From NCBI GenBank assembly GCA_000995185.1, contig LCET01000001.1, forward strand, positions 29,327-93,326: 64,000 nucleotides of DNA, read 5' to 3'. The position numbers and the translations under genes were made by a program. Below the pieces are notes generated by a model. It was not told where the DNA came from, made no database searches, and was given only the letters and a program-made list of their open reading frames with translations. Positions within the stretch are counted from its first letter, which is position 1, and every line of letters begins with the position of its first letter. Shown here piece by piece: positions 45,002-63,538 of this stretch. The DNA is from Candidatus Woesebacteria bacterium GW2011_GWC1_42_9 (GTDB taxonomy: Bacteria; Patescibacteriota; Microgenomatia; UBA8517).

Positions 45002-45940
45002 TTATAATTCTTGATCTATGAAGTTTACATCCCGGCCCTTTTTTTGGCTTAAGTTGACGATCATTTCTGCCACAAGTCCGGTGGTAACAAGCTGAATACC
45101 AATAATCATCAGGAGTATGCCGAAAAATAAAAGCGGGTGTCGGTACTGGATGCTTCCTGTGGCAATCCTTAAGTAGGTGATATATAAACCTATCATAAAA
45201 CCAGACGAAAAAAGAATTATACCCCACGTTCCAAAAAAGTGAGCCGGCCTTTTTAAATATACCGTGAGAAAAACAATGGTTATCATATCTAGAAAGCCCT
45301 TCATGTTCCTTTCCCAGCCAAATTTGCTTTGACCATATTTTCTTTTATGGTGTTTGACAATAACTTCTGAAACTTTGAAATTTTGTTTTTCTGCCAAAAC
45401 GGGAATATATTTGTAGAGTTCACCATAAAGATTAAGATTTTCTATTACTTCTCGTCGGTAAACTTTATATCCACAGTTTAAATCGTGAATAGAGATCCCT
45501 GTTAGTAGTCTAGTGGCAAAATTACCAATTTTAGAGGGGAGTGTTTTGCTAATTGGATCATAACGTTGTTTTTTCCACCCGGAAACCAGATCGTAACCTT
45601 CTTCTAGTTTATTTAATAACTTTGGTAATTCCGCAGGGTCGTCTTGCAAGTCGGCGTCCATTGTGACAACTATTTTGCCCCTTGATCTTTCAAAGCCAAC
45701 TTGTAAAGCCGTAGATTTACCAAAGTTGCCACGTAGCTTAATAACTTTCACTTTGTTGTTTTTTTTGGTTAATTTAGAGAGGACTTCGAATGTTGTGTCT
45801 GTGGAGCCATCGTCAATAAATATTATTTCATAGGTCTTCCTTGTTTTTGAGATTACCTCGAGTATTTTTTTGTATAGTTTTTCGACTGATTTTTCTTCAT
45901 TTTTGGCCGGGATGATGAAGGATAATTCAACTTTATTCAT
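45002..45940 (-). CDS. polyprenol-phosphate sugar synthase, GT2 with C-terminal TM helices (GtrB/ArnC/DPM1-like)
   Basis: 'LSFIIPAKNEEKSV...IIFIDDGSTDTT', 'TMDADLQDDP' and 'IHDLNCGYKVYRR'. Two C-terminal TM helices give the classic GtrB/ArnC architecture. Confidence 0.8.
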   Translation of the reverse strand: MNKVELSFIIPAKNEEKSVEKLYKKILEVISKTRKTYEIIFIDDGSTDTTFEVLSKLTKKNNKVKVIKLRGNFGKSTALQVGFERSRGKIVVTMDADLQDDPAELPKLLNKLEEGYDLVSGWKKQRYDPISKTLPSKIGNFATRLLTGISIHDLNCGYKVYRREVIENLNLYGELYKYIPVLAEKQNFKVSEVIVKHHKRKYGQSKFGWERNMKGFLDMITIVFLTVYLKRPAHFFGTWGIILFSSGFMIGLYITYLRIATGSIQYRHPLLFFGILLMIIGIQLVTTGLVAEMIVNLSQKKGRDVNFIDQEL

Positions 45941-45958
45941 GAAAACAACTGTATTATA

Positions 45959-46855
45959 ATGTCACAGATGAATTACAACAAGTGGAAGTGCATTGTTTGC
46001 GGAGGAGATAGAAAGAAGCTTCTTTATAGAGAAAAGAGGATTACTAAAAGTAAAATAACTCCAAAGGAAGCAGTCTGTACAGGCGAGATTGGCTCAAGAG
46101 GTAGACACGGAAAAATTTGGAAATGCGATACTTGTGGGTTTGTTTGCCAAGATTTTACTTTTTCGGAAAATGAGTTAAATAATGCCTACAAAGGGGGTAC
46201 TGATGAAATATATTTTGAACAATATAAAGAGCGGGAACATCTTTTTGAGAAGTGTCTAGATAGGATACACCAACATATTAAACCTCCAGGGAAAATGCTT
46301 GACATTGGATGCAACGCGGGGATATTTCTTAATACAGCAAGAAGAATGGGATGGAAAACGGAAGGTATAGAGCCCTCTTCTTGGGCTGCAAGGGTTGCCC
46401 GTGAGCGGTTTGAATTAAAAGTTAGAACAGGAATATTTGAGAAGACCAGATATAAGCCTGGGACCTACGACGTTATTACTAGTTGGGATGTTTTAGAACA
46501 TTTTGTCGACCCCGTTATGGTTCTTGATAAGATTCATAAATTACTTAAGAAGGATGGTGTCCTAGTTTTATCCACGATTGACATAAATAGCTGGTTTTCG
46601 CTGGTTTTAGGATCTCATTGGCCTTGGCTCATTAGAGTTCATCTCTGGTACTTCACTCCGGATACCTTTAGGCGGTTAGTTGAAAATAGCGGTTTTGAAA
46701 TATCCTGGATGGGGCCGCAGATCAGATGGTTTTCACTGCCCTACTTATTGACTAGGTTTACTGGTAAAAATTTTTCTTGGATGCCAACTATTTCCCTGCC
46801 GGCGCCAACAGGCGATATTATTTATCTTGTTGCTAGAAAAAAACAAAGTGACTGA
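45959..46855 (+). CDS. SAM-dependent methyltransferase with N-terminal 4-Cys zinc-ribbon
   Basis: 'CIVCGG...CDTCGF' followed by 'MLDIGCNAGIF' motif I and 'SWDVLEHFVDP'. Confidence 0.7.
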   Translation: MSQMNYNKWKCIVCGGDRKKLLYREKRITKSKITPKEAVCTGEIGSRGRHGKIWKCDTCGFVCQDFTFSENELNNAYKGGTDEIYFEQYKEREHLFEKCLDRIHQHIKPPGKMLDIGCNAGIFLNTARRMGWKTEGIEPSSWAARVARERFELKVRTGIFEKTRYKPGTYDVITSWDVLEHFVDPVMVLDKIHKLLKKDGVLVLSTIDINSWFSLVLGSHWPWLIRVHLWYFTPDTFRRLVENSGFEISWMGPQIRWFSLPYLLTRFTGKNFSWMPTISLPAPTGDIIYLVARKKQSD

Positions 46856-47855
46856 ATATCCCTTAGTATCGATAATAATTGTTAATTGGAATGGGGGCAA
46901 GGTTTTTGAAAATTGTTTGATTTCTCTTAAGAAGATTGACTACTTAAATTGGGAACTAATTATTGTGGATAATGGTAGTACGGATGGCACCCAAAGGTAT
47001 GCAACGATAAAAAATAAAAGGAATGTCGGATTTGCGCGAGCGAATAATCAAGGTTATAGAAAATGCAAAGGTAAGTACGTTTTATTATTGAATAATGATA
47101 CTAGGGTTGAGAAACGATTTTTGACTAAGTTAGTTGGAAGAATTGAAAAAGAACCCCAAATTGGCATAATTCAACCCAAGATTTTAGTGATGGATAAGCC
47201 GACTCATCTTGATAGTGTGGGGTCATTTCTAACGCGGACTGGCTTTTTAGAGCATTATGGATTTCTTGCTAAAGATTCAAAAAAATATGACAAAGAATTG
47301 CTAATTTTTTCCGCCAAAGGCGCTTGTATGCTTGTTCGGAGAGAGGTAATTGAAAAGGTGGAATTATTTGATGGTGATTATATTTCTTATTTAGAAGAAA
47401 CTGATTTTTGCTGGCGAGTTTGGCTAGCTGGCTATAAGATCTTATATTTTCCTCAGTCGAAGATCTTGCATAAAGTCGGCATGACCTCGAAAAGATTAAA
47501 CCAAGTGATAGTTAATTATCATTCTTTTAAGAACCGCTTAATTACGCTTTTTAAAAATTTGAATGGTCTCAATATTATATTAATTGGCGGTTTGCATTTG
47601 GTTATTATTTTAGGATTGAGCTTTTATTATTTAATTCACTTTCGGTTTAAAGAAGCAATTATGGTTTGGAGGGCAATTTATTGGAATTTATCTCATTTGC
47701 CAAGCTTGGTCCGTAAAAGAAGAAAGGTGCAAAAAATAAGAACGGTAACTGACAAAGAAGTTTTTAGGTATATTTTAAAACCTGTTGATTGGCAAGAAAT
47801 GTTTGGCCATTTTTTGCGTTCAGAGAGGATGCTGGCGGGGAAGCATGAGATTTAG
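46848..47855 (+). CDS. family 2 glycosyltransferase (rhamnosyltransferase-like)
   Basis: 'PLVSIIIVNWNGGKVFENCLISL...LIIVDNGSTDGT' and 'YLEETDFC'. No in-frame ATG lies near the 5' end. The likely start is GTG at 46848 or TTG at 46827. Confidence 0.7.
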   Translation: MTEYPLVSIIIVNWNGGKVFENCLISLKKIDYLNWELIIVDNGSTDGTQRYATIKNKRNVGFARANNQGYRKCKGKYVLLLNNDTRVEKRFLTKLVGRIEKEPQIGIIQPKILVMDKPTHLDSVGSFLTRTGFLEHYGFLAKDSKKYDKELLIFSAKGACMLVRREVIEKVELFDGDYISYLEETDFCWRVWLAGYKILYFPQSKILHKVGMTSKRLNQVIVNYHSFKNRLITLFKNLNGLNIILIGGLHLVIILGLSFYYLIHFRFKEAIMVWRAIYWNLSHLPSLVRKRRKVQKIRTVTDKEVFRYILKPVDWQEMFGHFLRSERMLAGKHEI

Positions 47856-49459
47856 GAGTTACCACTTCTTAGGATGTGGGAAGGTAGGCCTTGTCCCATC
47901 GAGTGTTCAAACTGCCTCGCAGCAACTGTCTGAATTTCTGGAAGCTGTAGATATTTTCTGGTGGTTCTTTCAGCGTGATCTCGAATCACTACCAACTCTT
48001 GAGGGTTAAGGTGATCGGTCCAAATATAAGCTGTGTAGTCACCAGGAATTCCTTTGTAAAAATTGGTGTCTTTGGCGTAGTTTAACTCGTCGCTCCATAG
48101 CCTGAGTGGTTGATGAGTATGAGGGTCGGCGATGGTATAGACCCAGGCTTTTTTTTCTGGTATGAAGATCGATTCATCATAATATGGTGTTCCGGGGTAT
48201 TGAGTTATAATTGTCCAATCTATTTCGTCTCCATGTTTAAGGTTATTTACTACCCAATCTATCGATTCTTCAACCGTTTGCGATGATTCTCCGGGATGGC
48301 CAATTGACATGAGGGCTTTGAATCGTAGTCCCGCCTGATGGGCAAGATTGACGCACCTGGCATTTGTTTCGCGGCTAGTACCCTTGTTCATCGCTCTAAG
48401 CATTTGGTCCGATCCTGATTCCACTCCGCTAAGTACGACCCTAAATCCGGCTTTATACATTAATTCTGCCTGTTCAGAGGTGAAGAGTTCTGCTTTAATA
48501 AAGCCTCGAAAACGCATTTCGATACCTAATTCCTTCTGCATCTTGATTAACCCAAGACAAAGGTTTTCAAGGGTGCCTGGGTTAATATTTAGCTCATCAT
48601 CATAAAACATCACCCCTCGGAGGGGCTCTGCCCAGTTTTTTGATCCGATTATAACCTGTCTGATTTCATCAATTGTATTGCCAATTTCTCTCTGTCTGGC
48701 CATGCGGAAAACTTGTGATTTTCGGCCGCCGCAGAATCCACATCCAAAGGGGCAACCAAGCTGGGAGATAACACTAAAAGTACGATACCGTTGGCCTTGA
48801 TCAGTAATATAATATTTATAACTTTCGTGGTCGATAAGATGTCGTGCTGGCCAGGCATATTGGTCAAGTGTACCCTTGGCAAGAAAAAGTGGTGATTTGT
48901 TATTGCCCGCGTCAACGATATTATCAAGATAATCGGGATCTATAGCATAAAAAATAGCAGCTTCACCATCTCCGACAACAATCTTGTCGACGTATTTGGT
49001 AAGTTGTTCAAAAGCGCGTGTACCTCTTCGTGGAGCACCAAATTTTATGTCCTCCTTCATGGCTGTATGGGTGAGAGTGGCGTGCGGACCGCCAAGAATG
49101 ATATGTGATTCAGGGGAAATTGTTTTAATTCGTTCGGCAATTTGCATTGTAGCTGGGATTTGCGGGGTGGTTGCGGTAATTCCAAAGACATGTCTTCCAT
49201 TTTGAGAGACATATTGATCGATAATATCCAGGTAATTTTGATGTCCGGAAAGGTCGAGGACCTTGATAGGATTCCCATTTCTTTCTAATTCAGCAGCAAT
49301 TTTAAGTGCGCCGAGAAAAGGGAAAACGCGTTCATCTGCCAAGAAAGTGGAGGGAGGGATGATAATACAAACTGGAATATCTCTAACTTTATCTTTTTGG
49401 GACTCCAGACTGGGGAATTTTTCAGGGCCTAGGTACACTAATCGTTCATTCACAGACAT
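47852..49459 (-). CDS. B12-binding radical SAM enzyme (class B radical SAM, candidate methyltransferase)
   Basis: Cys triad 'CPFGCGFCGG' (CxxxCxxC). The N-terminal 130 aa, 'PVCIIIPPSTF...IAAELERNG', have cobalamin-binding-domain character. Confidence 0.75.
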   Translation of the reverse strand: MSVNERLVYLGPEKFPSLESQKDKVRDIPVCIIIPPSTFLADERVFPFLGALKIAAELERNGNPIKVLDLSGHQNYLDIIDQYVSQNGRHVFGITATTPQIPATMQIAERIKTISPESHIILGGPHATLTHTAMKEDIKFGAPRRGTRAFEQLTKYVDKIVVGDGEAAIFYAIDPDYLDNIVDAGNNKSPLFLAKGTLDQYAWPARHLIDHESYKYYITDQGQRYRTFSVISQLGCPFGCGFCGGRKSQVFRMARQREIGNTIDEIRQVIIGSKNWAEPLRGVMFYDDELNINPGTLENLCLGLIKMQKELGIEMRFRGFIKAELFTSEQAELMYKAGFRVVLSGVESGSDQMLRAMNKGTSRETNARCVNLAHQAGLRFKALMSIGHPGESSQTVEESIDWVVNNLKHGDEIDWTIITQYPGTPYYDESIFIPEKKAWVYTIADPHTHQPLRLWSDELNYAKDTNFYKGIPGDYTAYIWTDHLNPQELVVIRDHAERTTRKYLQLPEIQTVAARQFEHSMGQGLPSHILRSGNS

Positions 49460-49546
49460 GTGTATTTTATAGCCTTAACCACTCTATGTATGAGGCTAAT
49501 AAATTTACTGTGGAGTGTCAATAACTAAAATTTTTTTTACAGTAAA

Positions 49547-50329
49547 CTACTTTATTATGGATTTTTTGAAGAATGCGGTATTTGCACGGACATAGCCTTT
49601 AGGCGTGCCGGTGTCATAAGTATGTCCGATAATTTTGATCCCATAAACATTTTGGCGAGCTTCAAGGGCGGCATGAAGAGCGTCGACATCGGTGATTTCA
49701 GTTTTAATTCTATTTTTTAACAAACTTTTTATGATTGGAAAAATTTTTGTGGTAAAAATGAAACGTCCAGACATCCTGATTTTATTATTTTTGTGGTGTG
49801 GTTTTTTGCTTGAGACTTTCGAACAAAAATGTCTAATAATTAACTTGTCGAACTTTTTTTGTGTGAGGCATTCGCCGTAGAGATCTAGGTTTTCAGGAGG
49901 AAACTTATCAAAAGAGATATAGTGAGATTTTTCTTTTAGGTAGACATTAATGAGCTGTTTTAATGCGGGTTTTTTGGAAATTATCGGGAGGTCAGGAAGG
50001 GAAACACAGAAAACGTCTTTCTTTATTAAGTTACGACAACACCAAATAGCATGAGCGATTCCCTTTGGACTTTTTTGATAAACGAATGTGTATTGTATAT
50101 TTACATGGTGCTTCTTTGTATTCACCAAATATTTTTTGATAAGTTCTTTCTGCTTATTGATTACAATGATTATGTTTTTGCATCCTGAGTAAATTGCCTC
50201 ATCAACTGTCCACTCAATCACAGGCTTATCTATAAGAGGAAGCATTTCCTTTGGGAGATATCCGGAGATTGGGGCCCATCGGGAACCTCTTCCAGCAGCA
50301 GGGATGATGCAATAATCAATTTTCCCCAA
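49547..50329 (-). CDS. sugar-1-phosphate nucleotidylyltransferase (GalU-like UTP-glucose-1-phosphate uridylyltransferase)
   Basis: 'CIIPAAGRGSRWAPISGYLPKEMLPLIDKPVIEW' matches the GalU-type signature G-x-G-T-R-x-L-P-x-T-K-x-x-P-K-E-M-L-P. Confidence 0.7.
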   Translation of the reverse strand: MGKIDYCIIPAAGRGSRWAPISGYLPKEMLPLIDKPVIEWTVDEAIYSGCKNIIIVINKQKELIKKYLVNTKKHHVNIQYTFVYQKSPKGIAHAIWCCRNLIKKDVFCVSLPDLPIISKKPALKQLINVYLKEKSHYISFDKFPPENLDLYGECLTQKKFDKLIIRHFCSKVSSKKPHHKNNKIRMSGRFIFTTKIFPIIKSLLKNRIKTEITDVDALHAALEARQNVYGIKIIGHTYDTGTPKGYVRANTAFFKKSIIK

Positions 50330-50333
50330 CGAA

Positions 50334-51062
50334 CTATTTAAACTTTATTTCATACCATAGCTGGAGTGCACTTTGAAAAGTTTGTCGAACGACTTTGAGT
50401 TTTGCGTTCTTGACTTCACCCGCAATTCTAGGATGATAATAACTTGGAGCCTCGATTATCTTGTATTTCTTTTGTTTGAAACGGACAAGAATTTCGGTTA
50501 GAAGGAAGATGCCTCCAGTGTAACGCATGGGAATTCGCTTGATTTTGCTTGTTCGCCATATATTGACCCAGCCAACATCCATGTATTTGATGTCAAAAAG
50601 TAGTAGTAGTAGGAGGAGATATCCGTACGAAAAGAAAATGCGTCGAGTGGCATAGTCTGACCGGCCCCCGCGGTAGCCAAGGACAAGATCTGCACCTTTC
50701 ATAACTTCAAAGCAATGACGCATATCATCGACTAAAAACTGACCATCAGCAGGCATGTAAGCAACAAATTCTTTTTTACTGGCTTTAATGCCTGCAAGCA
50801 TTGCTTGGCTATAGCCGCCATTTGATTGGTGGATGACACGTACACTTTTATTTCTTTTAGCGATTTGATCAGCTATTTTTCCTGTCTTATCAGTGCTGCC
50901 GTCATTAACAACTATTATTTCGTAATCTTTAAAATAATTTGGGAGGGATTTAAGAGTATTTTTGAGAATTGTCCGAATATTTTCTGCCTCGTTGTATGCA
51001 GGGATGACGACAGCAAGACTTGCTGATATTTTACTCTGTTTCATTTGGCAGAATATTAACAT
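50334..51062 (-). CDS. polyprenol-phosphate sugar synthase-like GT2 (DPM1-like)
   Basis: 'LAVVIPAYNEAENI...IIVVNDGSTDKT', 'YMPADGQF'. The start may be a downstream ATG (MKQSK). Confidence 0.7.
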   Translation of the reverse strand: MLIFCQMKQSKISASLAVVIPAYNEAENIRTILKNTLKSLPNYFKDYEIIVVNDGSTDKTGKIADQIAKRNKSVRVIHQSNGGYSQAMLAGIKASKKEFVAYMPADGQFLVDDMRHCFEVMKGADLVLGYRGGRSDYATRRIFFSYGYLLLLLLLFDIKYMDVGWVNIWRTSKIKRIPMRYTGGIFLLTEILVRFKQKKYKIIEAPSYYHPRIAGEVKNAKLKVVRQTFQSALQLWYEIKFK

Positions 51063-51068
51063 ATTTTA

Positions 51069-51746
51069 GTGAAGGATGTTATTGATAAATATTTGTGGTT
51101 TAATATGTTGGCGATGGATGAGGTTATAAAGCTGTATCAGAAAGACGGCGGTTTTGTAAGAGTGTTTTCAAAAATTAGATTTTGGGACGCTCCGTATAGT
51201 ATTGTCGAAAGAATCGTACCGGAAAAAGGGAACATTGTTGAAATTGGCTGCGGGGAGGGAATATTTACCAATTATTTAGGGATAACTTCTCAAAAGCGAG
51301 ATATTCTAGGGATTGAGATAAATAGGAAAAGACTTGGCAAGGCGAATCGAGGCATTAGAAATGTAAAGTTTAAATATGGGGATGCAACTAAAGTTAAGTT
51401 GCCGAGAGCAGACTCAATTATTTTGTTTCATTTATTGCACCACTTGCTATCTTTCAGTGATCAAGAGAAGGTAATTAGGAAATGTCTTTTGGCGCTCAAG
51501 CCAGGAGGAAAATTAATTATTGTAGAAGTAGATAAGAAGTTTAGTTTAAAGTATTTATTTACTTGGTTGACTGACCATTTTTTTGTGCCCTGGGTATTTG
51601 AAGGACGCTTTTATTCTCCGATTTTTTTTAGGAGTGGGAAAGATTGGTTGAGTGTTTTGAATAATCTGGGGATGAAGTGTAAAGCTAGATCGGCAGAAAA
51701 AGGAATGCCATTTACCCACATTATCATCAGCGGGGTTAAATATTAA
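51069..51746 (+). CDS. class I SAM-dependent methyltransferase
   Basis: 'IVEIGCGEGIFT' and 'LKPGGKLIIVE'. Confidence 0.7.
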   Translation: MKDVIDKYLWFNMLAMDEVIKLYQKDGGFVRVFSKIRFWDAPYSIVERIVPEKGNIVEIGCGEGIFTNYLGITSQKRDILGIEINRKRLGKANRGIRNVKFKYGDATKVKLPRADSIILFHLLHHLLSFSDQEKVIRKCLLALKPGGKLIIVEVDKKFSLKYLFTWLTDHFFVPWVFEGRFYSPIFFRSGKDWLSVLNNLGMKCKARSAEKGMPFTHIIISGVKY

Positions 51747-53812: not shown

Positions 53813-55684
53813 ATGAATATGAAGATACCTCAAATTGAACCATATATAGGGAATGAGGAATATAGAGAGTTGAAGTCTTGCTTTGATAATAAATGGGTGA
53901 CTGAGGGACCAAAGACCCAAGAGTTTCAAAAAGAATTGTTAAAGTTAATTGGAGCAAAGTATGGTGTCTTTGCGCCCAATGGCACTTTGGCCTTGTATCT
54001 GGCTCTAAAGGCGATTGGCGTTGGAGAAGGCCATGAAGTAATAGTCCCCGATTTTACATTTATTGCTTCAGCGACATCAGTGATTATGGCAGGTGCAAAG
54101 CCTGTATTTATAGATGTTAACCGGAAAAATTTTCAGATTGATGTAAATTTAGCACAGAGTTTGATTAACAAGAGGACCAGAGCAATAATGCCCGTACACA
54201 TGTATGGAACGATGTGTGAGATGGGTCCGATAATGGACTTTGCGAATACTAATAAATTAAAGGTAATAGAAGATGCAGCGCAAGCAGTTGGAGTTAAATA
54301 CAGAGGAAAGCATGCGGGAACATGGGGGGACATAGGTTGCTTTTCTTTTTTTGCTGACAAAACCATTACAATTGGCGAGGGCGGCTTCATTGTCACCAAT
54401 AGTGAGAGTGTATATGATAAATTACTTTATTTAAGGAACCAAGGGAGGAAAGATAGAGGGACTTTTATCCATCCAGAGATAGGTTATAATTTTAGGATTA
54501 CTGATTTCCAGAGCGCTGTCGGACTTGCACAACTCAGAAAACTTCCTCGAATAATTCAGCTTAAAAAGGAGATTTTATCTTATTACTTGAGAAATTTATC
54601 ACACATAGAGGGAGTAAAGATATTTGAGCCGTTTGTTGGTTATGATTGGATCCCATTTCGTGTAGGTATTATGGTGGACAATGCTGATATGTTAATGGAG
54701 TATATGGAAAGTAAGGGGATTCAAACTAGAGGTTTTTTTTACCCATTACACAAACAACCGGCATTTAAAAGCATCGTCGGTTATCAGGAAAATGATGTGT
54801 CTTTTCCCAATTCATCCTGGGGTTACAAAAGTGGAGTCTGCCTTCCCACATATCCGACACTAAGTAAAGATGAAATCAGATATATATGTAAGACAATTAA
54901 AGATTTTGTTCACAGCCAAAGAAGTATGTTTTATAAATATTATGATTTGATGTATTCGGAAAAAAATTATGAAAAAGAAACCGATTTTGTCTTCAAAGTA
55001 GTAGGTCTTGGAGACAGTGGAAAAACAAAAAAAATAAAAGTACTCGAAATAGGCTGTGGGACCGGAAACCACACCAGAAAAATACTTGACAGAAAAAAAG
55101 TTGGAAAGTTGATAGCGATTGATATCGATGAAAAAATGATTAATCTGGCAAAAAAGAAACTCGGAGGAGAAAAAAAACTATCGATTTATTGCAGTGAAGT
55201 ATCTGCTCTTGGTGAAAAGGAATTTGACTTAGCATTGGCTTTATTTAATGTTGTTACCTATATTTCAAAGGAAAGTGAGTTAGAAGAATTTTTCAAGGCT
55301 ATTTACGAAAGGTTAAAGAGTGGGGGGTATTTTGTCTTTGATGCATGGAATGGTGTGGCGGCCATAAAATATCCACCAAAAAAGAAGAAAACTATTTATA
55401 AGATTAGTAAGGGCTTTCTTGAAGTAAGTATTTTACCCCAAGTTAATATCTTGGACCAGAAGGTTGATTTGAATTATCAAATGAGGAAATCATTTAATGG
55501 TGCGGAGAAGAAATCAAACTATATTATTAATCAATATCTTTGGACACCAAACCAATTGAGGAATATATACCAAAAAGTTGGGTTTGAACAGAAGGCTATC
55601 AGGTCTATGGACGAACCAGATCACGAGGCAACTAAAGATGACTGGAAAATAATCTACGTATTGGTTAAACGTTCAGAAAAATAA
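53813..55684 (+). CDS. fusion of DegT/DnrJ/EryC1-family PLP sugar aminotransferase (N-terminal) and class I SAM methyltransferase (C-terminal)
   Basis: The N-terminal 380 aa carry 'GHEVIVPDFTFIASATSVIMAGAKPVFIDV', 'IEDAAQAVGVKYRGKHAGTWGDIGCFSFFADKTITIGEGG' (PLP-lysine region) and 'LRNQGR'. The C-terminal domain carries 'VLEIGCGTGNHT' and 'LKSGGYFVFDAWNG'. Confidence 0.75.
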   Translation: MNMKIPQIEPYIGNEEYRELKSCFDNKWVTEGPKTQEFQKELLKLIGAKYGVFAPNGTLALYLALKAIGVGEGHEVIVPDFTFIASATSVIMAGAKPVFIDVNRKNFQIDVNLAQSLINKRTRAIMPVHMYGTMCEMGPIMDFANTNKLKVIEDAAQAVGVKYRGKHAGTWGDIGCFSFFADKTITIGEGGFIVTNSESVYDKLLYLRNQGRKDRGTFIHPEIGYNFRITDFQSAVGLAQLRKLPRIIQLKKEILSYYLRNLSHIEGVKIFEPFVGYDWIPFRVGIMVDNADMLMEYMESKGIQTRGFFYPLHKQPAFKSIVGYQENDVSFPNSSWGYKSGVCLPTYPTLSKDEIRYICKTIKDFVHSQRSMFYKYYDLMYSEKNYEKETDFVFKVVGLGDSGKTKKIKVLEIGCGTGNHTRKILDRKKVGKLIAIDIDEKMINLAKKKLGGEKKLSIYCSEVSALGEKEFDLALALFNVVTYISKESELEEFFKAIYERLKSGGYFVFDAWNGVAAIKYPPKKKKTIYKISKGFLEVSILPQVNILDQKVDLNYQMRKSFNGAEKKSNYIINQYLWTPNQLRNIYQKVGFEQKAIRSMDEPDHEATKDDWKIIYVLVKRSEK

Positions 55685-58715: not shown

Positions 58716-60899
58716 ATGCCACAACTTATAGCTTTTGTCCGTAAAAATCAATGGTTGCTTTTGATACTCTTTTTAGCATTTCTATTTCGATTTGTTGGCG
58801 TCAGGCCAGGCTATAACTCTTTTCATCCCGATGAGCCGATCTTAACAGGAAAGGCCATACAGATGATTAAAAGAGGAAACTTAGATCCTGGACGATACGA
58901 CTATCCAACATTGTCAATATATATCGATTTTCTATTTTTCAAATTTTTTTTCACTCCCATTTATTGGATGAAATATTACTTGACTAATATCGTTGGTATT
59001 ATTGACGGAGTAATCCATATCCCCCCAAGCGCATTGGAGGCCAAGCGGCTTTTTCAGGTTGAAATATTAGGAGTAAGAGACATTAGCGCTTTATTTTGGG
59101 GGAGGTATGTGTCGGCATTATTTAGTTTAGGATGTGTTTTTTTAATTTATCTATTGGGATGTAAATTATTTAATAAATCTATCGGCCTAGTTGCAGCCTT
59201 TTTGTTAATTTTTAATTTTAAGCATGTTGCTAATTCACATATCAACTTACCAGACACTTATAACTCGTTCTTTTTACTTTTATCAATTATTGCGAGCGTT
59301 AATCTTTGGCAGAGACCTTCCAAAAAAAATTATATATTGGGTGGTATTGCTGCAGGACTATTTTTTTCAACAAAGTATCAATTTTTTGCCCTATTCCCTT
59401 TTGGACTAGCACATTTATATCGCTCAAGAAACCCCTTTAGTTATATTTTTATATCCTCGGGATTGGTGTTTCTTTTGGTGTTTTTAATTTTAAATGCTTA
59501 TTTTTTTATAAACATAGAACTTGCGTTGTATTGGATGGCAAGTGTTTCTGGACGATATGCAGTTGGAACAAATAATCTAAATTTATTTCCTCTTTCTTAT
59601 CTTTATAAAGTTGACTACGGGCAATTCGAGTCGATCATGATCTTGATTGGAAGCATTTTAATTCTGAGAAAATCTTTTCGAAAAGGTTCGTTTCTTTTTG
59701 TAACAGTTATTCCTTTCGCTTTTATGTTTCTTTATTATACAGGCGGGGGATTGTTTGTTAGAAATTTCATTACTATCACGCCAATCTTATTATTATTGGC
59801 GGCTTATGGTATTTGGAATATATATAAGTTTTTTAACAAGAGGATAATACCAGCTTTTTCTACATTAGTTTTGTTTTTTTTGTTGTTGGGGTCAGTTTAT
59901 GTCCCTGCTAAAAATAGTTTGATTAATTCTTATTACTATACTAAGCCGTGGAATATTAATGTTTTAAAAGATTGGCAAAGACAAATTTTACCCGACAGTG
60001 TTGCGATCGCTGCCCACCCCTTTGATCCCGTTGAAGGACCGTCTAATGTCATCCGATCTGAATTTGAAATAAGTGGCAATTACTCTTTGAATGAGCACAG
60101 GGAAGCTGGGGCTGACTGGGCTTTAGTTAACCTAATGTGGGCAGCTAACCCTTTTTATTTTTGGATGGGCTATGGTTTTAAGGATTTAAATATTTATTGG
60201 GATAAGCCAATTGACCAATTGCGCAACATGTACCACGGCTTGGCTACAGAGGAGCTATTTCGTTATCAAGTTTTTTCGGTCACTAAGCCTTGGCAGGCGC
60301 CCGAGTTTAATTATGTGATGATCAAGTTTCCGGAGTGGCCTGAGGTGCAGATGAAAGCACTTAAATTATTTGATTTTAGCGACGGTACACAGGGGTGGAG
60401 TTTTGGTTATGACGACAAGATAGGCCACAGTAGCCCCGGATCTATCGCGGTAGAGTTATCTGGAGATAAGTTTCCTTATAAGCGAATAACTTCTGAACCA
60501 ATGGAAGTGAAACCTGGCCGCCTTTATAAAGTGGAAGGTTTCCTAAAGACAGGAGCGATACTCCCTTCAAATCAGAGAGATGGTTTGTTGCGAATTGATT
60601 TTTACAGTGAAGTTATTTATTCTGCTGATAGAGTTGGCTTGATTAGTTCAGTTTCGTCACGTGCGTGGGGACCAGATGATTGGTTTAAGAAGCAAGTAAT
60701 TGAGCGTGCTCCTGGCGGTGCAAAATACATGGTTGTAAGTTTGCAGGTTGGTTCATCTGGAAGGACTAAAATATGGGCTGACGATATCGTAGTAGAAGAG
60801 TCAGATTCTGAAATTGTTGAGATAACATCTCAACCTCCGTATCTTGACAAACCTATCGATTTAAATTTACTTTACTTTAATTCAATTGGTAATTTATGA
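58716..60899 (+). CDS. GT-C PMT_2-like membrane glycosyltransferase fused to a C-terminal carbohydrate-binding (CBM_4_9-like) domain
   Basis: 'FHPDEPILTGKAIQMIKRGNLDPGRYDYP' DE motif and a TM-rich core of about 420 aa. The C-terminal 'FDFSDGTQGWSFGYDDKIGHSSPGSIAVELSGD...GRLYKVEGFLKTG' has a CBM beta-sandwich character. Confidence 0.55.
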   Translation: MPQLIAFVRKNQWLLLILFLAFLFRFVGVRPGYNSFHPDEPILTGKAIQMIKRGNLDPGRYDYPTLSIYIDFLFFKFFFTPIYWMKYYLTNIVGIIDGVIHIPPSALEAKRLFQVEILGVRDISALFWGRYVSALFSLGCVFLIYLLGCKLFNKSIGLVAAFLLIFNFKHVANSHINLPDTYNSFFLLLSIIASVNLWQRPSKKNYILGGIAAGLFFSTKYQFFALFPFGLAHLYRSRNPFSYIFISSGLVFLLVFLILNAYFFINIELALYWMASVSGRYAVGTNNLNLFPLSYLYKVDYGQFESIMILIGSILILRKSFRKGSFLFVTVIPFAFMFLYYTGGGLFVRNFITITPILLLLAAYGIWNIYKFFNKRIIPAFSTLVLFFLLLGSVYVPAKNSLINSYYYTKPWNINVLKDWQRQILPDSVAIAAHPFDPVEGPSNVIRSEFEISGNYSLNEHREAGADWALVNLMWAANPFYFWMGYGFKDLNIYWDKPIDQLRNMYHGLATEELFRYQVFSVTKPWQAPEFNYVMIKFPEWPEVQMKALKLFDFSDGTQGWSFGYDDKIGHSSPGSIAVELSGDKFPYKRITSEPMEVKPGRLYKVEGFLKTGAILPSNQRDGLLRIDFYSEVIYSADRVGLISSVSSRAWGPDDWFKKQVIERAPGGAKYMVVSLQVGSSGRTKIWADDIVVEESDSEIVEITSQPPYLDKPIDLNLLYFNSIGNL

Positions 60900-63538
60900 G
60901 ACGGTATAAAGTATTTTTATTAATTACTGTCCTTATTTCTTATGGCCAGATATTGGGGATGGGTGTATGGAAAGATGATAACGCTATTTTTTTTAAATTT
61001 ACCCATGTCAACGAACCGACAGGGTTTTTCGGGACTGGTATTTTGGGTCAAGGACCATACCGGTTTTCAATCACTCCATATTGGTTTGTCTATCAATTGG
61101 TCGGATATGAACACATTTGGGCATATTATCTACTAATTTTATTTTTTTATTTTTTGATTGCCTTCTTGGTTTATAAGGTCTTTTCTAGAATAATATCACC
61201 ATTGGGTGGTCAGGTTGCAGGATTACTTTTCGCAGCTGGATATGTCGCTTCGGAAGGATACTTTTGGGTTGCAAACGCGATGTTAGCAAATGCGAGTATG
61301 GTGATTGACCTCTTGATCCTACTATTTTATCACCTCTATTTTCAAAAAAAGAGATTGACCTATTACTTATTTGCATTAGGGCTTTATTGGTTGGTTTCTT
61401 TCCTTATCCCCTTGAGGAACTATTACTTTGTTTCTATTGTGATAATTTTTGAGTTAATACACATAAATTTGCGAAATCTACCCAGAGCAATCTTAACATC
61501 ACTAATAAGATTGGTTCCTTTTGGGATAGTTTTTCAACGTTATTTTTTGAGCCAGATGGATGGTAGAGCAGTTTCGGTACAGAATTTTTTTGTCTCATTG
61601 AGGGGTGGTGATTTATATCTGACACAAGGATTCTTGTCGTCAATTGCCAGCTTGATTATCCCAGACTGGTTCGTGTTTTGGTTGTTCCGATATTTTCCAC
61701 CGAGGATCGCTCTTTTTTGTGTCATTTCACTATTTTTTATTGTTTTGTTTTTTCTTTTTAGGAGCCAGAGAAGAAAGTTTTTAAAGATTGTTTGTTTTAA
61801 TTTGTTTGGTATTGTTTGGTTGATTGTTTCTAGAAATCTATATGATACGCCCGTCCTTGCACTTGTCCCTGTCAGAATATTTATTATCCGGTTGGGGGGT
61901 CTAGTTTTAATCTTAGCTTTAAGTCTTCTTTTTACTCTCCCAAAAAAAATGAAGGGCCAGTTCTTCTTTTTCTTTTCTTGGTTTGTGATCAGTATTGCCG
62001 GGTATACTTTTTACGAACCAAAGGCATACCTGGGGACGACCCATCGTTATTTTGCGCATTCTCTGGTTCCTTTGGCCGGGGTTTTAGCTGTTGTTTTTGT
62101 TGCCGTAAAACCAAAAAATCTCTGGACTAAACTGGTTAGATCAATGATTATTTTTTGGGGACTTACGAATTTAGTTAGCTCGGTGATTTATCAAAATAAA
62201 ATATTGAAAGAACGAAGTATTCCAGTTAGGAATTTCTATGTGCAGTTAAAAGATCACCTTGAAAGGGTTAAACCCGGGGATGTTTTTTACTTTGATGTAG
62301 CGAAAGAGTCAGCATCACAATTTGGAGATGCCTTCAAGGTTTCTTCAATGCCGAATGAAACTGCGATAGCGTGGCGTTATGGTGTTGACAGGAATGACTT
62401 TCGTCTTTTTGACGATTTTGATAGTTTTATTATTTGGGTTTGGGATAATAAGCTCACAAGAGAGCAAATTCACACTTATTATTATTCCAAAGAAGGGTTG
62501 GTTGATACTTCAGTACAGACTTGGCACTATTTAAAAAACAAAGAGGGATACAAGGAATTGAACGTAACTGCGCAGAGAAGCAACGGAGGATTGGAAATTG
62601 CCTTTGACGAACCGATTAATTCTGTTTCTCCTCTTGAATTTGAACTTGGTATAAGTGCAAAGCCATTAGCAGTTTCAGAGCTTTCTTTTCCATATCACAA
62701 TGATGTGGCTTTATTTTCAAATAAGTTGGCCGGAGATTCTTCTTTACGCCAGAGCGCCTTTGACTATCAAAAACAAAAAGAGTCGTTGATGGCAAGGGCG
62801 AGAATTAGCACCAATAGTACATGGTTTGGAGATGTGGCTGACCACTTGATAGATGGTAATTTAGGGAGTGTTTGGCGCTCTCATAGAGTATTATGGTCAA
62901 AGGAAAAGTCAACGAATTTAACCGTAGATCTAACCACGGAATTGTCAGTTGATAGATTTGTTTGGTATAACGCTTACTCTAATAATACGCCTACGAGATA
63001 CCGGCTCGAGCTATCTTCTGATAATCAAGATTGGCTAACAGTTTATGAGTCGGAAGGTCAATATCGAATTGAGCCCAACGAGATACAGGTCATAAAGTTT
63101 AATCCCAGAAGAGCGAGATATGTTCGGATGACTATTACTAAAACCTTGAGTGATGATTCACCAGGGGTAGCTGAAGTTTGGGTAGTGCCGTCCAGTTTCG
63201 ATAATTTAGATATTGTAGAGGCAGAGTCGTTTCTGTCGCAGCCATTTGCATTCGTACCCAATGGGCAAGATTATTTGGACACCCTAAGGAATGTCGGCTA
63301 TATAGGTAGGGCGACGATCTATTGGGAAGATAATCAACGAAAAGAATGGACGACGAAGTTTGGATCAGAGGTCCGGCCCATGTATAACTCTAGCGATCAT
63401 TTATACACAGTTTATGTGCCCTCAAGAGGAACAAAAATTGAAAAAATAAGAATAGCTGATACAACAATACCAGGGGAGATTGAGATAACTAGTGTGAGAT
63501 ATAGACATCTTACTCTGGAGGAGATTTTGATAAGATGA
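60896..63538 (+). CDS. large polytopic membrane protein (GT-C-like) with a C-terminal F5/8 type C (discoidin) domain
   Basis: A TM-rich N-terminal 430 aa is followed by a soluble region. The C-terminal 'FGDVADHLIDGNLGSVWRSH...LTVDLTTELSVDRFVWYN...YRLELSSDNQDWLTVY...ARYVRMTI' fits the discoidin consensus closely. Confidence 0.6.
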   Translation: MRRYKVFLLITVLISYGQILGMGVWKDDNAIFFKFTHVNEPTGFFGTGILGQGPYRFSITPYWFVYQLVGYEHIWAYYLLILFFYFLIAFLVYKVFSRIISPLGGQVAGLLFAAGYVASEGYFWVANAMLANASMVIDLLILLFYHLYFQKKRLTYYLFALGLYWLVSFLIPLRNYYFVSIVIIFELIHINLRNLPRAILTSLIRLVPFGIVFQRYFLSQMDGRAVSVQNFFVSLRGGDLYLTQGFLSSIASLIIPDWFVFWLFRYFPPRIALFCVISLFFIVLFFLFRSQRRKFLKIVCFNLFGIVWLIVSRNLYDTPVLALVPVRIFIIRLGGLVLILALSLLFTLPKKMKGQFFFFFSWFVISIAGYTFYEPKAYLGTTHRYFAHSLVPLAGVLAVVFVAVKPKNLWTKLVRSMIIFWGLTNLVSSVIYQNKILKERSIPVRNFYVQLKDHLERVKPGDVFYFDVAKESASQFGDAFKVSSMPNETAIAWRYGVDRNDFRLFDDFDSFIIWVWDNKLTREQIHTYYYSKEGLVDTSVQTWHYLKNKEGYKELNVTAQRSNGGLEIAFDEPINSVSPLEFELGISAKPLAVSELSFPYHNDVALFSNKLAGDSSLRQSAFDYQKQKESLMARARISTNSTWFGDVADHLIDGNLGSVWRSHRVLWSKEKSTNLTVDLTTELSVDRFVWYNAYSNNTPTRYRLELSSDNQDWLTVYESEGQYRIEPNEIQVIKFNPRRARYVRMTITKTLSDDSPGVAEVWVVPSSFDNLDIVEAESFLSQPFAFVPNGQDYLDTLRNVGYIGRATIYWEDNQRKEWTTKFGSEVRPMYNSSDHLYTVYVPSRGTKIEKIRIADTTIPGEIEITSVRYRHLTLEEILIR

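Follow-up and report, generated by a model that had tools for sequence, protein, structure and literature searches.

What does a radical enzyme with a vitamin B12-binding domain do in the middle of a gene cluster for surface sugars? The question is raised by a stretch of 64,000 nucleotides from Candidatus Woesebacteria bacterium GW2011_GWC1_42_9 (contig LCET01000001.1), referred to here as the window, in which the gene for a radical S-adenosylmethionine (SAM) enzyme follows the genes for a glycosyltransferase and a sugar nucleotidyltransferase. The answer favoured here, to which we give a little less than an even chance, is that it belongs to the cobalamin-dependent radical SAM enzymes of class B, within a conserved family not yet characterised, and that it tailors a hexose for a cell-surface glycan, most probably by C-methylation. 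The wider frame of this answer is firmer: this is a real, well-defined, uncharacterised class B family wired into envelope glycan synthesis, a result of moderate rather than high surprise. An earlier note, made from the sequence alone, had described a three-gene unit on the minus strand running from 51062 down to 47852, and the open reading frames (ORFs) lie exactly as claimed:

50334-51062, minus strand: short Dpm1/AglJ-type family 2 glycosyltransferase (GT2), putative polyprenyl-phosphate hexose synthase, first gene of the unit (ORF, 242 amino acids [aa]; Pfam Glycos_transf_2)
49547-50329, minus strand: GalU-like sugar-1-phosphate nucleotidyltransferase (ORF, 260 aa from TTG 50329; Pfam NTP_transferase)
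47852-49459, minus strand: the radical SAM enzyme (ORF, 535 aa; Pfam B12-binding and Radical_SAM; KKS97224.1 / UniRef100_A0A0G1DHQ8)

The span given in that note, 47852-50329, covers the radical SAM and nucleotidyltransferase genes, with the GT2 just outside it, as its text says. The radical SAM protein is 100% identical to KKS97224.1 of Candidatus Woesebacteria bacterium GW2011_GWB1_43_14, a groundwater member of the Microgenomates within the candidate phyla radiation (CPR).

Is the enzyme of class B at all? The domain architecture says so. Both hidden Markov models that the earlier note had proposed as a check match, Pfam B12-binding over residues 49-152 (44.0 bits, E 2.4e-11, gathering cut-off 32.1) and Radical_SAM over residues 231-403 (63.6 bits, E 3.3e-17). 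In the AlphaFold2 model (predicted local distance difference test score, pLDDT, 91.5; predicted template modelling score, pTM, 0.90), residues 30-172 form a five-stranded Rossmann domain of five beta/alpha units, and the partial TIM barrel is present. The parts of the protein are encoded as follows:

48905..49372, minus strand: N-terminal Rossmann-type domain, predicted to bind cobalamin, aa 30-185 (translation, AlphaFold2 secondary structure, review motifs)
48731..48754, minus strand: radical SAM cluster motif CPFGCGFC (C236, C240, C243), the canonical CX3CX2C (translation; invariant in the family)
48170..48784, minus strand: radical SAM partial TIM-barrel core, aa 226-430 (Pfam Radical_SAM; AlphaFold2 model)
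47855..48169, minus strand: family-specific C-terminal cap, aa 431-535 (conservation)

The finer signature of cobalamin binding is also present. Solved class B enzymes share a long beta1-alpha1 loop without histidine, the motif Gx(S/T)xX after beta3, a Gly-Gly pair on beta4 and, where alpha5 begins, Gly-Glu (PMC9204698). All four of these base-off/His-off features are carried here, in a loop at aa 35-48 without His, G93-I-T95-A-T97, G123-G124-P-H126 and G165-E166. HMMER aligns G93-x-T95-x-T97 with G65-x-T67-x-R69 of TsrM. A sequence search of the PDB with the N-terminal domain alone returned chance matches only, so the motif comparison is based on this TsrM profile alignment and on the definitions in PMC9204698. 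All three cobalamin-tail motifs, together with CX3CX2C, are invariant in 58 close homologs, and PF02310 is precomputed in 119 of 120 such homologs. In a distant set (58 representatives) G93 is kept in 55 of 59 sequences, the two glycines of the GG pair in 59 and 58, H126 in 57, G165 in 46 and E166 in 39, and CX3CX2C is kept there as well. With its Pfam match, its modelled Rossmann fold and its motifs, the N-terminal domain has the cobalamin-binding fold whose absence the earlier note had named as fatal to its proposal.

The rest of the protein is equally well defined. The core holds three invariant stretches, F-Y-D287-D288-E289-L-N291 at the position of the GGE motif, G345-V-E347-S-G at that of the ribose motif, and G387-H-P-G-E391. 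Because the conserved cysteines of the family number three only, there is no motif for an auxiliary cluster. The C-terminal cap has its own conserved residues (W439, Y468-K469-G470, Y475, T481, R493, R501 and FEHSMGQ) and, in the alignment, is matched by no region of the AprD4-like or generic class B sequences; by analogy with the class B structures in the available part of PMC9204698, it is presumed to bind the substrate. The top fold matches of the model are all class B-type enzymes, in a ranking against solved structures, of which GenK, Fom3, HpnJ and calditol synthase (Cds) have none.

Class B architecture alone is not proof of cobalamin binding, because AprD4 has this architecture and does not bind cobalamin (PMC12931638). 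The caution is pertinent here, as among solved structures AprD4 (the apramycin 1,2-diol dehydratase, PDB 6fd2) comes closest in both sequence profile and fold. It resembles the window enzyme in having an N-terminal Rossmann-like domain and a radical SAM core, and its substrate is a sugar ring. However, AprD4-like proteins carry CX3CX3C (CPYPCxYYC) and F-R-D-P and have no GxTxT, GG-P-H or DDE, whereas the family studied here keeps all three and CX3CX2C. Aligned with the D287-D288-E289-L-N stretch, the cobalamin binders TsrM and OxsB have DSEFN and DEEF, while AprD4 has DPVFS there. As a negative control, 10 of 11 AprD4-like proteins drawn with an AprD4 core fragment gave no Pfam B12 match. AprD4 itself was not among them, and three homologs stood in for it as controls, P0274 (45% identical over the fragment) and two more distant ones. 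Judged at the level of sequence, the family agrees with class B in every test and with AprD4 in none of the membership tests. Its predicted competence to bind cobalamin is thereby well supported, and the enzyme presumably does bind it.

To which class B subfamily, then, does the enzyme belong? The earlier note had suggested a comparison with the characterised subfamilies, and this places the enzyme in the class without placing it in any of them. The scores in bits against the curated NCBIfam models, each with the cut-off of the model, are as follows:

PhpK: 104 against 600, the best match
HpnJ: 79.2 against 578, the second-best model, core only
BchE: 66.8 against 481
rSAM_ladder_B12 (ladderane type): 63.7 against 360
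MgmA: 59 against 360
RiPP C-MT: 55 against 282
AprD4 (NF033070): 54.3 against 500, core only
BzaD: 48.2 against 450
HpnR: 40 against 650
TsrM: 20 against 500
KedN5: 17 against 700

Since no model reaches its cut-off, the enzyme represents an orphan subfamily. Membership in the non-methylating class B families of the BchE, HpnJ or ladderane type was considered and rejected, as all of these fall below their curated equivalog cut-offs; the label "Mg-protoporphyrin cyclase" that homologs carry at JGI is generic. The earlier note had held that grouping with non-methylating, BchE-like clades would count against methylation. That grouping is not reached, yet it would be no clean discriminator, because non-methylating class B enzymes are indistinguishable from methylases by sequence or structure, according to a 2026 review (PMC12931638).

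The family itself is compact, with 45-63% identity across phyla. Close homologs, 47-63% identical, come from Woesebacteria, Daviesbacteria, one Chloroflexota metagenome-assembled genome (MAG) and Nanoarchaeota. Searched exhaustively, 1.84 billion representatives yielded 187 clusters at 50% identity with E <= 1e-30 and 7303 with E <= 1e-10, a difference that sets the family apart from the bulk of class B enzymes. Among 185,579 genomes, one per species, relatives occur in 349, still 44-49% identical, and their phyla include Elusimicrobiota, Omnitrophota, Planctomycetota, Acidobacteriota, Nitrospirota, Patescibacteria and Nanoarchaeota, so that both the CPR and the DPANN archaea are among them. 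The cultured carriers are Nitrospira moscoviensis NSP M-1, Acanthopleuribacter pedis KCTC 12899 and Sulfidibacter corallicola M133. Literature searches returned no description of the family, nor did they turn up a radical SAM enzyme of class B in gene clusters for O-antigen, capsule or CPR glycans; a paper on Elusimicrobia concerns other radical SAM genes. Matches P0190, P0224, P0240 and P0256, which have several domains, are tandem B12-radical SAM polyproteins of about 27% identity and are uninformative on the substrate.

Many of the homologs (P0125-P0253) carry inteins (Intein_splicing and LAGLIDADG), and the window gene has none. To judge from the boundaries of BLAST segments, the intein junctions lie at or beside C236, C240 and C243 (48731-48754), apparently three independent sites within a motif of eight residues. 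Additional sites lie in the YDDELN motif (about aa 286-292) and the GHPGE motif (about aa 386).

Is the enzyme truly tied to glycan synthesis, or does it merely sit among such genes? The window alone cannot answer this and related loci are needed, because almost any gene in a glycosylation island has glycosyltransferase neighbours. ORFs were therefore called in about 75 loci and clustered, and the immediate neighbours of the radical SAM gene were counted (119 in all, in about 70 loci that represent more than 10 phyla). Glycosyltransferases (GT2, GT4, GT47 and GT-C) make up at least 49 of the 119. By type, the neighbours include 31 GT2, 10 GT1/GT4, 7 Glyco_trans_1_2, 7 class I methyltransferases, 6 NTP_transferase, 5 epimerases or dehydratases of nucleoside diphosphate (NDP)-sugars, 4 GT47 and 4 PMT_2 genes. 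In one homolog (P0156) the radical SAM enzyme is fused to a GT47 domain, and in four Patescibacteria loci a GT47 gene lies directly upstream. Of the cultured carriers, A. pedis and S. corallicola have an NDP-sugar short-chain dehydrogenase/reductase (SDR) as direct neighbour, and N. moscoviensis has GT4, GT9, Glyco_trans_1_2 and GT2 genes around the gene. Taken together, the link of the family to glycan biosynthesis is strong and independent of the window, as the earlier note had supposed from the window.

The partners that the earlier note had named fared differently from one another. The most recurrent specific partner under strict clustering is a short (about 246 aa) GT2 of the Dpm1/AglJ type, which several phyla share; 24 of 70 loci have it, 14 of them in the adjacent position. 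The best PDB matches of its distant members are ArnC and dolichol-phosphate-mannose synthase, and their best NCBIfam models are AglJ, ArnC and PpgS. The lipid-sugar synthase type of partner is thus widespread, and it is the key one in terms of conservation. The nucleotidyltransferase, on the other hand, is confined to a Microgenomates subclade, and with adjacency in only 6 of about 70 loci it was rejected as a universal partner. In the closest clade (the window and loci L006 and L009-L016) the genes form a module with a 225-aa methyltransferase gene on one side, then the 242-aa GT2, an optional nucleotidyltransferase and the radical SAM enzyme, followed by a convergent 342-aa GT2, an optional 298-aa methyltransferase and an ArnC-like GT2 of 312 aa. 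Orthologs of the 242-aa GT2 lie directly upstream of the radical SAM or nucleotidyltransferase gene in L006, L009-L012 and L014, and a galactokinase-like GHMP kinase gene, absent from the window, precedes the nucleotidyltransferase in L006 and L016. Several of these loci (L009-L011 and L014-L016) come from MAGs titled "uncultured Gammaproteobacteria" that have the Woesebacteria-type module in the same gene order, with radical SAM proteins 53-62% identical; the taxon labels of these third-party annotation (TPA) assemblies look wrong.

The labels given to the two partner enzymes in the window were apt. The nucleotidyltransferase (Pfam NTP_transferase, 88 bits) has GalU of H. pylori (3juj) as its best solved relative, with 115 bits over the full length, and its best PDB matches are all GalU; its best NCBIfam model is galU (TIGR01099), at 159.5 bits in two stretches against a cut-off of 326.8. 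The GenBank model of this protein, KKS97223.1, has 232 aa and starts from an internal ATG, by which the nucleotide-binding motif IIPAAGRGSRW is lost; TTG 50329 is taken as the true start because it preserves this motif (G-x-G-x-R). The 242-aa GT2 (Pfam Glycos_transf_2, 96.4 bits) is best matched in the PDB by dolichol-phosphate-mannose synthase of P. furiosus (5mlz, residues 14-221), followed by chondroitin synthase and GalT1 over the N-terminal part only and then by GtrB and ArnC. The AglJ model aligns with it over its full length at 48.5 bits (cut-off 325).

Co-transcription of the three genes, also claimed in the earlier note, is plausible. The GT2 stop is 4 nt from the TTG of the nucleotidyltransferase, the stop of the latter is 87 nt from the ATG of the radical SAM gene, and the gene order of the unit is kept in relatives. 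Neither gap holds a minus-strand terminator-like or promoter-like site in a scan that ran at background level (12 found against 10 expected and 5 against 3.5) and is no positive evidence on the transcription unit.

How might the three enzymes work together? In the scheme favoured here, the GalU-like enzyme would convert a hexose-1-phosphate to an NDP-hexose. The radical SAM enzyme would cleave SAM reductively at its single [4Fe-4S] cluster and abstract a hydrogen from an unactivated carbon of the sugar. Most probably, a methyl group would then pass from methylcobalamin, regenerated by a second SAM, to the sugar radical, which amounts to C-methylation. The Dpm1-like GT2 would place the modified sugar on polyprenyl phosphate and, after a flip across the membrane, one of the 13 GT-C transferases of the island would move it to a protein or glycan outside. 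Loading by a GT2 and delivery by a GT-C are analogous to the logic of ArnC and ArnT.

On the simplest reading, the enzyme acts on one kind of NDP-hexose and the adjacent transferases use the product. The radical SAM enzyme, including its C-terminal cap, stays highly conserved across differing neighbour contexts, and the neighbouring GT2, GT4, GT9 and GT47 enzymes differ in their acceptors while all using NDP-sugar donors; this argues for an NDP-linked rather than a lipid-linked substrate. The nucleotidyltransferase, the galactokinase-like GHMP kinase and the NDP-sugar SDR that are neighbours in subsets of the loci fit such a substrate. C-methylation of the NDP-hexose is, we infer, the most likely chemistry. 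Methylation is the best prior because every characterised sequence group of B12-radical SAM enzymes contains C-methyltransferases (PMC12931638). The earlier note's proposal that a C-methylated or otherwise radical-modified sugar is built into the glycan can be kept as to the glycan link and the cobalamin fold, while for C-methylation itself the support is this prior, with no methylase model reached.

Known systems offer both models and contrasts for this scheme. GenK and GenD1 act on unactivated sugar carbons and belong to a glycosyltransferase-rich cluster, that of gentamicin. Like the window enzyme, they combine a B12-binding domain with a radical SAM core, and they are listed among the Csp3-methyltransferases of class B (PMC12931638). 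They differ in showing no detectable subfamily relationship with it, no curated model coming near its cut-off, and in their substrate, a finished aminoglycoside pseudo-oligosaccharide of secondary metabolism, whereas the present family lies in envelope-glycan clusters with NDP-sugar and polyprenyl-phosphate enzymes in many phyla. Another parallel is Fom3, which methylates its substrate only after nucleotide activation by a nucleotidyltransferase (the cytidylyltransferase domain of Fom1), much as the nucleotidyltransferase and radical SAM enzyme are paired here. PhpK, the class B methylase of a phosphonate pathway, is the top NCBIfam match, though far below its cut-off. The difference from Fom3 and PhpK is that the nucleotidyltransferase here is of the GalU type, for sugar-1-phosphates, and not a phosphonate cytidylyltransferase; the Pfam listings of the window and flanks hold no phosphoenolpyruvate (PEP) mutase or other phosphonate-pathway gene. 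With TsrM, TokK, OxsB, MgmA and CysS the identity is only 13-21%, and the C-terminal cap is different and family-specific.

Several observations weigh against C-methylation of a hexose by a cobalamin enzyme. The solved structure nearest to the enzyme is that of AprD4, a cobalamin-free sugar diol dehydratase; the search found no characterised relative; and among the curated models, of which none is reached, second place goes to HpnJ, a putative ring-contracting enzyme for sugars that has a GT2 as partner. Three of the closest syntenic loci (L009, L010 and L014) and nearly all distant ones lack the nucleotidyltransferase. The earlier note had also held that the organism must acquire or use cobalamin, and the Pfam listings of the window and of about 20 kb past its end (about 85 kb in all) contain no genes for cobalamin transport or salvage. 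The island has about eight ordinary SAM methyltransferases as well, which are neutral as to C-methylation.

Could the chemistry be a different one? The strongest of the other explanations is a cobalamin-dependent ring-contracting or carbocycle-forming enzyme, like OxsB, HpnJ or calditol synthase, which would act on an NDP-linked hexose or, after the Dpm1-like GT2, on one linked to polyprenyl phosphate and give a cyclitol-type or ring-contracted unit. HpnJ acts downstream of the GT2 HpnI on lipid-linked glucosamine, and calditol synthase, a possible class B member, likewise acts on lipid-linked glucose (PMC13459092), so both pair a radical SAM enzyme with a GT2 partner and a hexose on a lipid. 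A lipid-phosphate sugar synthase-type GT2 is also the most recurrent partner here, and HpnJ is the second-best model at 79 bits. The residues under the predicted cobalt position, at the lower-axial side, are Thr/Thr/Pro/Gln, and the small polar ones among them (T97, T98 and Q100) would resemble the Asn that OxsB has there more than the bulky residues of the methylases TsrM (Arg) and TokK (Trp). However, the HpnJ score is 79 against a cut-off of 578 and concerns the core only, and no hopanoid or tetraether genes lie near the radical SAM gene. In other phyla the partners are soluble transferases of families GT4, GT9 and GT47, whose acceptors are not lipids, and this suits an NDP-sugar substrate better. 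Of the class B reactions known, only a small minority are ring contractions (PMC12931638). This explanation is unlikely, although it is not far-fetched.

Other radical chemistry (epimerisation, oxidation or C-C coupling), or a substrate that is not a sugar, such as the polyprenyl carrier lipid or a residue of a glycoprotein, is quite unlikely. Class B enzymes that modify lipids do exist, namely HpnP/HpnR, Grs and Gmm (PMC13459092), a carrier lipid would fit the association with Dpm1-type and GT-C enzymes, and the type of reaction is not readable from sequence (PMC12931638). A carrier lipid as substrate leaves unexplained, however, the GT47 fusion, the adjacency of GT4 and GT9, the NDP-sugar SDRs, the sugar kinase and the nucleotidyltransferase. 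An AprD4-like 1,2-diol dehydratase with no need for cobalamin, which together with an NAD(P)-dependent reductase would produce a deoxy-hexose, is weakened by the motif control (AprD4-like proteins having CX3CX3C and neither GxTxT nor GG-P-H) and is improbable.

What would follow if cobalamin-dependent tailoring of a hexose is the right reading? The family may be the first cobalamin-dependent radical SAM enzyme to tailor a nucleotide-activated or polyprenyl-phosphate-linked hexose for primary envelope glycans, by C-methylation at an unactivated carbon or by carbocycle formation; this is offered as a tentative suggestion, with the balance leaning against it. Sugar-directed members of class B are known so far from antibiotic and hopanoid pathways. 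Neither the ultra-small CPR bacteria nor the DPANN archaea are known to make B12. If the suggestion is true, both would rely for their surface glycans on cobalamin that they scavenge from the community. Their cell surface would then have a vitamin dependency, and envelope glycobiology would gain a modified sugar or a radical reaction that is new to it. Class B is one of the largest and least-charted groups of enzymes, with more than 100 sequence groups, most of them without known function (PMC12931638). The presence of the family in cultured organisms makes its function directly testable.

As for the surroundings, the window is one glycosylation island, with 11 PMT/PMT_2 genes, one YfhO and one PIG-U type GT-C, about 15 GT2, 5 GT4, about 8 class I methyltransferases and 2 flippases. 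The genes flanking the three-gene unit are as follows:

46827..47855, plus strand: GT2, 342 aa, convergent with the radical SAM gene, the 3' ends overlapping by 4 nt (Pfam)
45959..46855, plus strand: class I SAM methyltransferase, 298 aa, with a Cys-rich N-terminal segment (Pfam Methyltransf_23; ortholog in the same position in L012)
45002..45940, minus strand: ArnC/GtrB-type polyprenyl-phosphate GT2, 312 aa, with a hydrophobic C-terminus (NCBIfam ArnC, 183 bits over the full length)
51069..51746, plus strand: class I SAM methyltransferase, 225 aa, divergent from the unit (Pfam; orthologs flank the module in L009, L010, L011 and L014)

Orthologs of the 342-aa GT2 (328-581 bits) hold the same convergent position in L006, L009-L012 and L014, which makes this gene a conserved member of the module, and orthologs of the 312-aa GT2 (434-531 bits) are found in the same loci. 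Rfam and tRNA scans of the window gave no matches. The island runs at least 20 kb beyond the end of the window (L090, 12640-22643), with genes for an ArnA-like formyltransferase, a polysaccharide deacetylase, WbqC and more GT2 and methyltransferase enzymes.

About 4-5 kb past the window end (L090, 16780-17748), a second, unrelated radical SAM gene (Radical_SAM and SPASM, 322 aa) has a WbqC-family gene on one side and a gene for a DegT-type aminotransferase on the other, which suggests another radical sugar modification in the island. In the Chloroflexota relative (L004, 3842-5179), the second gene away from the radical SAM gene encodes a cobyrinic acid a,c-diamide synthase of the CbiA type; it is the sole cobalamin-related neighbour seen among the loci and may be a coincidence.

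Within the window, positions 53813-55684 (plus strand) encode a protein of 623 aa in which a DegT/DnrJ/EryC1 aminotransferase is fused to a class I methyltransferase domain. Another gene, at 60896-63538 (plus strand), follows a PMT gene directly, with overlapping stop and start, and encodes a protein of 880 aa that carries carbohydrate-binding domains of the F5/8 type C (discoidin) kind and may be a glycosylation target or a lectin. Most genes of the window are on the plus strand, with the radical SAM unit among the few minus-strand blocks, and GC skew is positive in every 2-kb bin, the cumulative skew rising monotonically.

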